Origin: Okamejei kenojei
Taxonomy: Eukaryota
Assembly (NCBI GenBank): GCA_035221665.1
Contig: CM069155.1
Coordinates: 25,668,001 to 25,732,000, forward strand
Length of the DNA: 64,000 nt
Direction of reading: 5' to 3'
A program made the position numbers and the translations under genes. Below are positions 1,522-54,430 of the stretch, in pieces. Position 1 is the stretch's first letter. Every line of letters starts with the position of its first letter. The notes below the pieces were generated by a model. It made no database searches, was not told the DNA's origin, and saw nothing but the letters and a program-made list of their open reading frames with translations.

Positions 1522-1691
1522 GGACACAGTGCTGGAGAAACTCAGGGGGTCAGGCAGCACCTCTGGAGAACATGGATATGTGATGTTTTGGGTATCCAGT
1601 CTGAAGAAGGGTCCCGACCCAAAACGTCACCTATCCATGATCTCCAGAGATGCTGCCTGACTCACTGAATTACTCCAGCACTTTTTGTGTC
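1522..1691. mobile_element. Penelope-terminus-derived foldback element
   Basis: Arms gacacagtgctggagaaactcag...ctggagaacatggata and tatccatgatctccagag...tactccagcactttttgtgtc are reverse complements. A hammerhead-like core lies at 1601. Confidence 0.75.
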
Positions 1692-2149
1692 CTTTTGTCT
1701 GTCTCGGAGTTATGCACTGCATCAGTCTTCCCTCATTACCCCTTTTCACCTGATCAGCTCAATCCCAGTTACTTTTACCTTCGCTCTGATCCACTGTTAA
1801 ATGCATGTGTGCTGTTCAATCCCTCCAGGCAGCATTGAAACTGGCCCACATTCAGTTTACATGGGATATATATAGAAAGTAGACCTTTTCTTTTCCCATG
1901 TAACCATTGGATCTAGTTCAGAGGCCTAGAATCGCATACAGATTAATTGCAGAGACCTGGGTAATGATCTTTGCAGATGGTTTCTCTATGCTTTTTAATG
2001 CTCATAAACCCAATTTTCAACTTCCGCTCCTCACAAATAAACACCTTTTCTGCCTCTTATAGTTCATCTGTAATTTTGAAGAGGGCTTTGAAATTGCCTC
2101 TTGGCTTTCTCGGGAGAGAAGCTTGAAGATCAGGGTTAAAGATAGAACA

Positions 2150-3680
2150 TACGGAATTGGGTAAATGCATAAACTCTTTTACCCAGAATAGGGGAATCAA
2201 GAATTAGAAGATATGTTTAAGGTGAAATGGGAAAGATTTATAAGTTCACAAGTTATAGGAGTAGAATTAAGCAATTTGGCCCATCCCATCTACTCTGCCA
2301 TTCTATCATGGCTGATCTCTGCCTTCTAATCCAATTTTCCTGCCTTCTCCCCATATCCATTAACACTAATTCTAATCAAGAATTTGTCTATCTCTGCCTT
2401 AAAAATATCCACTGACTTGGCCTCCACAGCCCTCTGTGGCAAGGAGTTCCACAGATTAACTACCCTCTGACTAAAGATATTTCTCCTCACCTCCTTTCAA
2501 GAAGTGCCCTTTAATTCTGAGGCTATAACCTCTGCTCCTAGACGCTCCCACCAATGGAAACATCCTTTCCACTTCCACTCTATCTATGCCTTACATTGTC
2601 CTGCAGGTCTCAGAGGCCCCCGCTTCACCCTAAACTCCAGCGAGTAGAGGCCCAGTGCTGTCAAGCGCTCATCATATGCTAACCCACTCATTCCTGGAAT
2701 CATTTTCATAAACCTCCTCTGGAACCTCTCCAGAGCCAGCACATCCTTCCTCAGATATGGGGCCCAAATTTGCTCACAGTACTCCAAATGCAGCCTGACC
2801 AGCGCCTCAAGGTCATACGGAATAGGAGTAGAATTAGAACATGGCTGATCTATCTCTCCCTCCTAACCCCATTCTCCTGCCTTCTCCCCAATACCTCTGA
2901 CACCTGTACTAATCAAGAATCTATCTGTCTCTGTCTTAAAAATATCCACTGACTTAGCCTCCCCAGCCTTCCGTGGCAAATAATTCCACAGATTCACCAC
3001 CCTCTGACTAAAGACATTTCTCCTCATCTCCTTCTTAAAAGTATGTCCTTTAATTTTGAGGCTATGACCTGTAGTCCCAGACTCTCCCACTATAGAACCT
3101 CAGCATTACATCTCTGTTTTTGTATTCCATTCCTCTTGATATAAATGCTAGTATTGAATTGCCTTCCATACTACTGACTTGCAAATTAACTTTTTGGGAG
3201 TCCTGCACCAGCACTCCCAAGTCCCTTTGCATCTCCGATTTCTGGATTCTCTCTCCATTTATAAAATAATCTACGCCTTTATTCTTATTAGCAAAATGCA
3301 TGACTCTGCACTTTGCTACACTGAATTTTATCTGCCTCTTCTCTGCCCACTCTCTTAACCTGTCCAAGTGCTTCTGCAGAGTCCTTTCCTCTGCACTGCC
3401 TGCCCCTCCACCTATCTTAGCATCTTCTGCAAACTTTGTCGCAAATCCTTCAATCCACTTATCCAAATCATATTCCAAATTTAACATTAACCTGAAGGGC
3501 AACTTTATCACACAGAGGGTGCTGGGTATATGGAATGAGCTGCCAGAGAAAGTGGTTGAGGTAGGTACTATAACAACCATCAAAATACATTTGTACAGGT
3601 ACATGGATAGGAAAATGTATGGGATATGGGCCAAACATGGCAGACAAACAAACATATGAAGTGCTGTGTGTCCCAGTTGT
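2150..3680. mobile_element. cluster of CR1 (HER1-like) LINE 3' fragments: two tandem - strand pieces (2245-2806, 2808-3475) flanked by + strand pieces
   Basis: EYCEQIWAPYLRKDVLALERFQRRF, FSQRVVNLWNYLP, KFAEDAKIGG, KFSVAKCRVMHF. Confidence 0.85.
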
Positions 3681-3744
3681 ACTATCATGGACCCAGGAGT
3701 TGGGGTGAGACTGATCTGACCAACCTAGAATAGTCTCCATGTTT

Positions 3745-3985
3745 AAGAAAGAACTGCAGATGCTGGAAAAAATCGAAGGTAGACAAAAATGCTGGAGAAA
3801 CTCAGTGGGTGTGGCAGCATCTATGGAGAGAAGGAATAGGTGACGTTTCGGGTTGAGACCCTTCTTCAGACTGATGTCGGGGGAGGTGGGAAAAAGAAAG
3901 GAAGAGGCTTGTGGGAGTGCTGGGGATGGGGAGGGGAAGGAGGGAGAAAGCAAGAACTATCTGAAATTGGAGGTCAATGTTCATC
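3745..3985 (-). mobile_element. Penelope-like terminus with intact minimal hammerhead motif
   Basis: Reverse complement reads ...catcagtCTGAAGAagggtctcaacccGAAAcgtcacctattcc..., preceded by a MNIDLQF-like ORF end. Confidence 0.78.
3842..3869 (-). ncRNA. minimal type I hammerhead ribozyme-like motif
   Basis: CUGAAGA, extra A, stem II GGGU/cuca/ACCC, GAAA, CG, UC: all core nucleotides present. Activity is not demonstrated. Confidence 0.55.
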
Positions 3986-4614
3986 TAAGGTATCCGAAGG
4001 TCTGTCCACCAATTGTGGAGTATTTAAAATTGGGGCTTTCTCAGAGGCTACAACTGGTGTAATGCAAATCTCAGAGGGTTGTGGGGCTGGTGAATCCTGC
4101 AGAGACAGGGAAGATTGCAGACATGAAGATTTTGGAATGATGCTTGAACCCGTATCTTTTGCTTTTGCCAGGAAGATATTAACGCTGACAACTAAATATG
4201 CGTCCTATTTGTTTCAAATAGCCTATTGCCCACTCTCCTCCTTTCCACTCCTAGTTTCATCTTGTGGTGTTGGTTTCTGCATTTGTTAATTTGGTTTGAT
4301 GCAGGAGCTTTTGTTCAAAAGTAAAGAATAGGAATGAATACCTGGAGGTAATCCTATGGAGGGGTTATGTTTCTTTTTGATTCTAATTGTTACCAACCAT
4401 TTGTGAAATTGTATGTTGCTCAGGTTGGAAATGATTCTGAAGTGAGACCACTGCCCCAGTAGCAGTGAGAGCTTTCGCAGTTCATAAAAGCAGTTAGAGG
4501 AGTGTTAGCCATCGATGCTAATGTGTCTTGTAAATCGCAGATTTTGTACAATGGAAACTTTTGAAGCAAACCAGCTAATGTTCAATGTTTTCATTGTAAT
4601 TTTTTTTACTCTAG

Positions 4615-52433: not shown

Positions 52434-52525
52434 TCAGCTGTCCTTGTAAACAAACAGAACGTCCTCGTCCGTCCCGTAGCTGTGGCGGGCCTCATTGAAG
52501 TTACTCACGGATGTACAGCAGACTC
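52434..52525 (-). CDS. GUCD1: GUCD1 last coding exon (6)
   Basis: Acceptor cttcacag; 92 nt. (R)VCCTSVSNFNEARHSYGTDEDVLFVYKDS then TGA. The six exons total 708 nt = 235 aa plus stop. Confidence 0.96.
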
Positions 52526-53209
52526 CTGTGAAGCAGAGACAGGGCAAGGGTTTGAAGTTATAAATTGCTACAATGGAGCTAGCTCTAATCCTTCCCCTTG
52601 TTGATGAGGGAGGTCACACTGCAATCAGAAACCTCTCAGCCAGGCCAGAGGATGGCCAGCTGCAGGAAGGTTCTGCAATGCGAGCAACTGAACACAGAAA
52701 TGGGATGAGAGCCCAGCAGACAGTGAGGGTCAGTTGAGGAGCAGAGTGCAAACTCTTCCCTCACAATGAGAATCGCTGAAAAATCCTGGACTTAGTGAAA
52801 GGAAGACAATTTTGAACCATTAATGTTCACCAGAAACCATCACTAAAAAAGATAGCATCCTTGTTGTCCACTTGTTATATATAATGTCCAACATCTCATG
52901 TGGCCAGTGTCCAAATGGATGAATGGATCTCAGGACACGCTTCAGACAGTGAGGAGTTCTCAATGTCCTACACAAGGAGTAACACCGATGCACAATTCCC
53001 TTAAATTTTCCCATCAAACCCCCCCCCCCCCCCCCCCCGACCAAAGCACAGGCTAATCATGGAGTAAAACTCCAACTGTTTCCACATGTCATTCCCTGTC
53101 ATCTCGGGCATGACATTTGAATGACAGTCTGGTCATTGTGCGCGGCCCAGGTTGCATAGACCTGTCGCCAATTTATGGTCCAGATCCTCCCACCCACAGC
53201 TCCACTTAC

Positions 53210-53451
53210 TGTCAGCATATGCTGGGTTGTTGTAGAAGATGCAGCCCGAGTTCCTGTTGTAGCCACACACCACAATAAAATGTCCCTGATAGTCCGGTTT
53301 CCTGCAGAAGCATTTCTGTCCCATGGGAAGGAGGCAGCAGAACTTGAGCGGAGCGGAGCAGAGATCACAGACCAGTAGGATGGCGTTGACCAGGACCACC
53401 ACCACGTGACCCTGGGCCAGATGCTCCTGGATTTCCTGAATGGTGACTGAC
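53210..53451 (-). CDS. GUCD1: GUCD1 exon 5
   Basis: Acceptor aaattag and donor gtaagt; 242 nt. [80 protein letters not shown]. Confidence 0.97.
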
Positions 53452-53734
53452 CTAATTTGGGGCAGAGAGAAATCACAACAGAAGGTCCAAACCAACCGTT
53501 GAAGCCTAAGACAACCCAAGATCACCAGCGGCACAGCCAGTACATCGCCCAAAGAGAGACACAAAGTGCTGGAGTAACTCAGTGGGTCAGGCCCATCTCT
53601 GGAGAAAAAGGATGAATGACATTTTGGGTCGGAACCCTTCTTTTAACTATGTGTGGAGTGGAGGGGAGGGTGGGGTCCAGACTGGTAGCAAGAAAAAACC
53701 TGGACCAATCTGGACCAGGCACAAATGAGTGAAC

Positions 53735-54430
53735 CAAGGAGTTGCCATCACCCACCGAGGGATCCCACCACTCATCACCTCTTCCCATCTCCACCCCTTT
53801 CCACCTTCCACAGGGACTGTCCCCTCCACAACTCCTTGGTTCACTCACCCCTTCCCACCCAAACCGCCACCTCCCCAGGTAATTTCCCCTGCAAATGCAA
53901 GAGATTCACCAGTATCTTTTCGAACCTCATCTACTACATCCGGTGCTCCCAATGTGGGCGCTTGTACATCAGTGAGCCAAAACGTAAACTCGGCAACCAT
54001 TTCACGGAACCTTTACGCTCAGTCCACCTAGAGTTACGGGATCTCCCAATTGCTAACCATTTTAACTCCTCTTCCCATTCCCATACCGATCTTTCTGTCC
54101 TGGGCCGCCTCCATTGCCAGAGTGAGGTCTTTTTTACCAGTTCCACAGTGCTCCACATTGTTTGCTGCTTGAGATTACACCTTCTCAAGCCAACAGTGGG
54201 CATACCAGGCACCGCCCTGCCAGCGGTCATTTGTGGCTGGCCCTGGTCTTTTACCATCTCCTGCTCTTTAAGTACCCCCTCCTCAATCCCTACTCTCAGT
54301 CTGAAGAAGGGTCCCAGCCTGAAAAGTCACCCATCCTTTCTCTCTCTCTCGAGATGCTACCTGACCCGTTGAGTTGGTCCTGCACTTTCTGTCCATCTTT
54401 GGTATAAACCCGCATCTGCAGTTCCTTGTT
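53735..54430 (+). mobile_element. Penelope-like element remnant (GIY-YIG endonuclease region plus terminus)
   Basis: FTSIFSNLIYYIRCSQCGRLYISEPKRKLGNHFTEPLRSV...LPIANHFNSSSHSHTDLSVLG, followed by the ctgaagaagggtc terminal motif at 54301. Confidence 0.82.

Follow-up and report, generated by a model that had tools for sequence, protein, structure and literature searches.

A Penelope-like hammerhead repeat in the skate Okamejei kenojei: insertion stubs that probably record internal priming and run-off on uncut RNA

A 28-nucleotide (nt) motif recurs through a 64,000-nt stretch of the skate Okamejei kenojei genome (assembly GCA_035221665.1, contig CM069155.1; hereafter the window, within which positions are counted). 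We conclude that this motif is quite probably the minimal hammerhead of the terminal repeat of a Penelope-like element (PLE), and that its copies in the window are decaying stubs likely left by internal priming on uncut, likely capped element RNA and run-off at its 5' end. The occurrence of hammerheads in PLE terminal repeats is already published, and as a ribozyme family this one is ordinary, its copies being mostly dead. The more informative part is the stub with its fixed ends, which an earlier reading of the window, made from sequence only, had overlooked in favor of the motif. Throughout, +1 is C3, the first core base, -1 is the base before it, and the predicted cut lies between +28 and +29.

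The sequence-only reading had recorded 13 full and three partial copies of the motif, all of which we confirmed at the places and on the strands it gave. Four further copies with at most 7 substitutions lie on the minus strand (15453-15480, 53618-53645, 59566-59593 and 13533-13560). The motif forms the front part of a longer, roughly 130-nt repeat, most copies of which are stubs of about 100-135 nt. In the 2.76 Gb of genome scanned, an exact 31-mer of this repeat has 13,437 matches, compared to 0 for the reversed 31-mer that served as control. A profile built from the 100 nt behind the core only detects 28 copies in the window, or one per 2.3 kb, so the earlier estimate of about one copy per 4 kb was too low. 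The same profile finds 518 copies in an arbitrary sample of 118 stretches of 10 kb (1.178 Mb at round-number positions, two of them flanking the window) and 0 in a Markov control sequence, which extrapolates to a family of about 1.2 million copies per genome; six copies were dropped at stretch edges, leaving 512 usable. A generic hammerhead descriptor, one of the checks proposed with that reading, gave 84 matches in this sample versus 5 in the control, and 78 of the 84 belong to the stub family. Among the other six, two are indel variants of the main family, and their number is near the control level of 5, so a second hammerhead family in the sample was rejected. The companion check against Rfam gave no match of any hammerhead covariance model to the motif in the window, even at E values up to 10.

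The description of the motif as a minimal type I hammerhead, with A9 followed by one extra A and stem III palindromic, carried in Penelope-like termini, is supported both by the published consensus and by full units with reverse transcriptase (RT) and GIY-YIG coding sequence. The CUGANGA, GAAA and UH core elements are present in the majority sequence of every large subfamily, and many single copies are broken. The family majority has an A between A9 and G10.1, the G10.1-C11.1 pair and a 4-bp helix II. Published PLE minimal hammerheads (PMC4209133) likewise have CUGANGA, an extra base after A9, G10.1-C11.1, GAAA, the CG palindrome and UH, and likewise occur once per terminal repeat, mostly as solo copies and opposite-strand pairs; an Acropora Neptune example there has an identical layout with a 4-bp helix II. 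Stem I of the skate family consists of 2 contiguous bp (U-A or U-G plus G-C), whereas the published consensus has 3 bp, although examples from Drosophila virilis, Culex and Oikopleura in the same paper also have 2. The long stem I attributed to the copy at 8668 did not hold up: element homology ends at -2, so the apparent helix is formed with flanking host DNA, and this copy has lost the ACGU palindrome.

Longer copies extend upstream of the motif through a GIY-YIG endonuclease region and then the RT, for which a query returned 37,642 first-look candidates in the genome. Twenty long-frame copies, mostly 94-99% alike, terminate behind the motif. A second core upstream was reached in 10 of the 25 loci found by a 5' query, and the core-to-core unit measured 3941-4001 nt in 10 of the 10 loci fetched for it (about 3.96 kb). 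This unit runs from core and tail to an ATG at +163, a 1185-residue RT-linker-GIY-YIG frame, a 3' untranslated region (UTR) and the second core, and one locus (L257:1415-4972) holds the 1185-residue open reading frame (ORF) unbroken from its start at +163. Pfam recognizes RVT_1 (E 5e-6) and GIY-YIG (E 0.004) in this ORF, both below the curated cut-offs, and the protein has 475 homologues, the best of which share its domains and are about 50% identical. A cysteine linker (C-x4-C-x2-C) between RT and endonuclease points to the Neptune or Nematis clade, the linker type being common to both, and a long Pro-rich N-terminal region brings the ORF to its full length. According to Craig et al. (2021, PMC8557442), these endonuclease-positive clades share the RT, a CX2-5CxxC linker and a GIY-YIG domain at the C terminus, together with partial tandems, inverted 5'-truncated copies and a 30-40-bp tail; the skate element differs in its Pro-rich region, and its clade is placed by the linker rather than by a tree. 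It shows the same hallmarks of endonuclease-positive PLEs: a partial tandem that forms a pseudo-long terminal repeat (pseudo-LTR), inverted 5'-truncated copies (head-to-head copies number 181 of 512 in the arbitrary sample, both arms counted) and an optional 30-40-bp tail, the 3' ends of copies clustering near +93 and at +121 to +128, about 30 nt apart. The unbroken ORF and the 96-99% likeness of subfamily copies suggest that the family was probably active recently. Within the window, GIY-YIG-like remnants do precede the cores at 54301, 42424 and 33165, as the sequence-only reading had seen; the first was placed by alignment to the intact protein (52% identity, E 1e-40) and the other two by translation. 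Pfam gave no match on the window's four endonuclease remnants, which were placed instead by comparison with the intact protein. By eye, one long copy lies just behind the apparent last exon of an interleukin-17-like gene (L095, oriented 2300-3130), and another has, adjoining its upstream flank, a reverse-strand fragment with a retrovirus-like RT motif (L219).

The start of the stubs is fixed. Of the 512 sampled copies, 76 begin in the tail, 129 begin in the core and 307 reach the core start. When upstream extension was scored by a thresholded test with a null, 244 of these 307 stopped between -24 and +1 and 63 extended, with matches at background by -7. The same start is found in both tail classes, and in inverted as well as non-inverted copies (148 non-inverted stubs). 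Target-site duplications of at least 9 nt flank 19 of the 148 non-inverted stubs compared to 4 of 300 shuffled pairs; they are 9-18 nt long, and many abut AGT, GT or CAGT, confirming the fixed ends. Long copies were drawn from a survey of joints based on an exact 27-mer of the youngest 5' UTR, which has 119 genome matches; the first 81 places yielded 67 distinct loci, 26 long and 41 short (L228 was read by eye), and five places left out of the survey, which are long copies already analyzed or a tandem partner, run on upstream. Nineteen of the 26 long copies pass +1, and none of the 19 starts between -24 and +1 (the nearest at -26; one other copy at +4), versus 18 of 27 young copies of the arbitrary sample that start at the fixed site (Fisher p 1.8e-6).

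The 41 short loci comprise 33 small tandems, 7 jointless copies and 1 complex case. In a small tandem, a piece ending at +186 to +674 is followed by a piece that starts upstream and ends in the tail. The joint lies at -6 to +5 in 12 of them, and in 7 of the 12 the second pass ends again at -5 to +5; A-runs of 6-10 occur at three small-tandem joints and an extra G at several. Very short tandems were found at 485 loci, where the base before AGT is G in 118 cases versus A or T in 22 (118 of 140 counted; the element itself has C before AGT, and C joints were not counted separately). Because the sequence across the joint is pyrimidine-rich, this G is extra in most very short tandems. In the first 20 of the 118 loci, two of which represent one duplicated insertion, the second pass ends at -5 to -1 in 14 and at +2 to +12 in 6, never stopping further upstream than -5, and a duplication of 11-15 nt flanks the whole insert in 9. 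At ten small-tandem loci an identical joint occurs twice or three times; in most of them the joint shows microhomology of 2-6 nt and the starts lie further upstream. One microhomology joint recurs at separate loci (L250, L270 and L305), as does another (L275 and L278), and one locus carries four hammerhead-bearing 485-nt units (L279); these are possible young retrozyme-like lineages. Elsewhere, a 49-nt unit with the whole core is repeated head to tail at least six times (G000:C2:52296732-52296983), by repeated jumps or later expansion.

We propose that the RT would prime 94 or 128 nt inside uncut, likely capped element RNA, and that run-off at the RNA 5' end, 1-6 nt ahead of the core, would leave a stub. 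The fixed start would then be an RNA polymerase II start site within an initiator-like TCAGT, and the extra G at tandem joints might be a copy of the cap. From the RNA 5' end the RT may jump to free RNA 3' ends, some of them A-tailed, and such jumps would make the small hammerhead-bearing tandems. Head-to-head pairs could be two complementary DNAs (cDNAs) made at both ends of one break. An antisense self-priming model for such pairs has been proposed earlier; the extra G and the A-runs lie on the sense strand, which favors a sense template, at least in tandems. More tentatively, a single strong-stop-and-transfer route, in which the telomerase-related RT would prime close to the capped 5' end, copy the cap and then jump to the 3' end of an RNA, might be the source of stubs, tandems and pseudo-LTRs alike. 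Failed jumps would leave the million stubs, jumps to short RNAs would found retrozyme-like tandems, and the pseudo-LTR would be rebuilt when homology guides the jump to full-length RNA (or a ligated circle), with the hammerhead possibly setting the RNA 3' end used for this. Within this route, the cap run-off and the end-to-end jump are the better supported parts, and the origin of long copies is speculative: read-through RNA starting upstream, a ligated circle (proposed in 2014, PMC4209133) and seamless transfer between RNA terminal repeats all fit the DNA equally.

With a start at -6, the AAACGT of the core would fall at +28 to +33 from that start, the position of a downstream promoter element (L257, about 1253-1283). 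A downstream promoter element, RGACGTGY, has been named for Drosophila Penelope, and it is a speculative possibility that the hammerhead core doubles as a promoter part.

Several observations weigh against the proposed copying mechanism. The capped start, the run-off, the cap copying and the jumps are read from DNA, and the transcript-type matches are contigs that may themselves be DNA and cannot show RNA ends, strand or level. Since none of the 19 long copies begins at the fixed start, long copies need a further step or another RNA. At simple joints between stub and host the base counts are about 38 G, 41 A and 21 T (a hand count of the first 100 of 5,806), so the excess of G there is weak, and at tandem joints the extra G could arise without a cap through a C-preferring terminal transferase activity. 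The repeated identical joints are more readily explained by a circular template or by later duplication of the DNA than by repeated jumps. Cleavage has left little trace: 5' ends fall at the cleavage site in only 4 of 512 copies, and the acceptor ends at 100 listed tandem joints, counted by hand, spread from +26 to about +45, with about 10 at +35 and only 1-2 at +28. With few 5' ends or joints at this site and a disfavored predicted fold, ribozyme activity is doubtful. Templates cut by the hammerhead were likewise rejected, as 5' ends do not pile up at +29 nor 3' ends at +28.

The view that the dispersed copies are a working ribozyme family, cutting host or element RNA as monomers or dimers, agrees with the published consensus in core, extra A, G10.1-C11.1 pair and CG palindrome, and many copies are intact: core, stem II and palindrome are complete in 54 of 512 sampled copies, and in 1 of 20 in the window. 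The latter, at 3842-3869, is the sole window copy with core, 4-bp stem II and CG palindrome all intact, in keeping with the intact core noted for it before. We nevertheless regard this view as very doubtful. G12 is changed in 24% of the 307 core-reaching copies, much like the CpG sites of the tail at 21%; at non-CpG sites the rates are 6% in the core and 10% in the tail, the former an underestimate, since only copies alignable through the core were counted, and the latter including subfamily differences. The palindrome at 15.2/16.2 is CG in 154 of 307 copies and TG or CA, as expected of CpG decay, in 107. Inserted copies thus look neutral in their decay. The three G of stem II (10.1-10.3) are changed, mostly to A, in 11-14% of copies versus 5-10% at other non-CpG positions. 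The stem II covariation test called for by the sequence-only reading returned compensatory double changes at chance level (4 seen and about 3 expected for 10.1/11.1). When 196 ungapped copies were clustered, the large subfamilies shared the core and varied at loop II, between U-A and U-G in stems II and I, and at H17; in this genome their stem changes are one-sided and keep pairing, with no excess of double changes. Signs of constraint therefore appear only between subfamily majority sequences, which suggests that it acted in source elements. Folding of the youngest subfamily gave a stem II probability of at most 0.03 and about 0 for the 2-bp stem I, and the predicted dimer helix III is weak (-1.7 kcal/mol). 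Neighboring copies are mostly head to head, so their cores do not lie on one RNA strand, and in published relatives cleavage was either a weak activity of dimers or dependent on protein: monomers of the class failed to cleave, and the anole hammerhead required protein (PMC4209133, PMC11167929). Of the abundant elasmobranch ribozyme-bearing repeat put forward initially, the abundance stands, and a working ribozyme in the dispersed copies is not supported. The hammerhead would probably cut only in source transcripts, and then only with help from the element's protein.

Other origins for the stubs can be envisaged. The fixed start could reflect a structural or sequence block, or a junction hot spot (the odd palindrome CAG-T-CTG), rather than an RNA 5' end; the 181 head-to-head copies, where this palindrome gives microhomology, and the weak G excess at host joints favor such a view, but the start is identical in the 148 non-inverted stubs, long copies cross the sequence unstopped, and the extra G at tandem joints is left unexplained, which makes it unlikely. 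It is likewise unlikely that short copies multiply by themselves as non-autonomous elements similar to short interspersed nuclear elements or retrozymes. Stubs far outnumber the 119 exact matches to the youngest 5' UTR, retrozymes are known to derive from such termini, and certain joints do recur between loci. Yet the stubs lack any sequence past +128, the region that corresponds, measured from the priming site, to where the anole protein binds (PMC11167929); most copies are solo or inverted rather than tandem, and the duplication borders the element in the clearest young insertions, meaning that they brought no flanking sequence of a parent copy with them. Finally, the pyrimidine tract and CAG conserved ahead of the core in nearly all long copies resemble a 3' splice site, donor-like sequences occur both where the ORF ends and near +160, and an intron of Drosophila Penelope ends at helix I (PMC4209133), so that stubs could stem from spliced or back-spliced RNA. 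We consider this highly improbable, as target-site duplications directly abut the start, meaning that no upstream exon was copied, and neither the predicted spliced joint nor the back-spliced one has a match in the genome (0 each), in a search (one degenerate and one exact pattern) that is weak since such elements are known to retain introns. Internal priming with run-off on uncut RNA thus remains our preferred explanation for the copies in the window, which are as follows.

1516..1697, both strands: head-to-head stub pair; plus-arm core 1601-1628 with G12 changed, minus arm stopping within the core
3740..3900, minus: the only fully intact motif of the window, with full tail and a bit of 3' UTR
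7861..7957, plus: stub beginning 3 nt ahead of the core; U4 changed, short tail
8666..8761, plus: stub beginning 2 nt ahead of the core; core intact, palindrome changed
13435..13560, minus: degraded old copy
15392..15604, both strands: head-to-head pair; cores 15453-15480 (minus) and 15482-15509 (plus)
18151..18311, both strands: tails head to head, without core
21980..22111, both strands: tails head to head, without core
23975..24056, minus: stub truncated within the core
25139..25327, both strands: head-to-head pair; cores 25177-25204 (minus, A13 changed) and 25208-25235 (plus)
25680..25782, plus: stub of the UUCG-loop subfamily; U-G pair in stem II
28345..28440, minus: youngest-subfamily stub truncated within the core
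31823..32629, plus: endonuclease remnants with no core after them
32778..32903, minus: stub truncated within the core; full tail
33105..33635, minus: longer copy; endonuclease C-terminal remnant, 3' UTR, core 33165-33192 (stem II broken), short tail
38250..38380, plus: stub beginning at the first core base; G12 changed, full tail
42079..42520, plus: longer copy; endonuclease C-terminal remnant, 3' UTR, core 42424-42451, short tail
42849..43605, plus: linker and endonuclease remnant, 59% identical to the intact protein; tail remnant at 43523
51104..51258, both strands: old head-to-head pair; core 51182-51209 (plus)
53549..53645, minus: stub truncated within the core
53737..54430, plus: longer copy; linker and GIY-YIG remnant, core 54301-54328, full tail
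59505..59594, minus: degraded old copy

The window also holds exons of two convergent host genes (18522-18872 and 42662-43009 on the plus strand; 53136-53642 and 56122-56523 on the minus strand) with Pfam matches to carbon-nitrogen hydrolase and Guanylate_cyc_2, which are probably UPB1 and GUCD1. Between the two nitrilase-domain exons, 4 core-bearing copies lie in sense and 5 in antisense orientation, too few for a test of orientation bias. A near-perfect 1.5-kb inverted repeat at 45095-46632, whose arms each contain 72-nt tandem units and whose center is AT-rich, is unrelated to the hammerhead family. Another retrotransposon, of the non-LTR type, is present in fragments (48809-50165, plus; 47095-47785, minus) with an RVT_1 match, and many CR1-like 3' ends were seen by eye.

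The closest experimental counterpart is PAc, the Poseidon element of Anolis carolinensis (Frangieh et al. 2024, PMC11167929). It shares with the skate element two internal priming sites that give an optional tail, an uncut RNA template and a hammerhead near the ORF start, and since it cuts and extends both DNA strands, a like reaction would account for head-to-head pairs. In the skate element the ORF encodes a Cys linker and begins 163 nt downstream of the first core base, whereas the PAc ORF starts in stem II; the available text of the PAc account describes no cap run-off, extra G or jumps to RNA 3' ends. Small hammerhead tandems like those described here, with units of about 185-680 nt in the skate, are reported for animal non-LTR retrozymes (Li, Clavereau, Pollet, bioRxiv 10.64898/2026.07.22.740005). 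Unlike those head-to-tail arrays, the window copies are solo or inverted, and tandems occur at a minority of loci elsewhere in the genome. The joints here suggest birth during reverse transcription, whereas that paper, in its available part, discusses local amplification after insertion. We found no literature on this family or on cap run-off and jumping by PLEs in a search that lay outside subscription papers, Repbase and Dfam; the supplements of the retrozyme paper include one cartilaginous fish, so the family may be listed there.

At about a million copies, the skate family exceeds the thousands per genome given in PMC4209133, the available supplement of which shows no cartilaginous fish. 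Its value lies in this copy number, as a young and very abundant family leaves joints that record steps of Penelope retrotransposition. These joints bear on points that the in vitro work left open, namely the formation of pseudo-LTRs and tandems, the RNA start and the use of cut RNA, and they predict that capped RNAs start at -3 and -6, that the cDNA carries an extra C and that jumps go to A-tailed ends. Moreover, they offer a direct route by which autonomous elements might give rise to retrozyme-like tandems.

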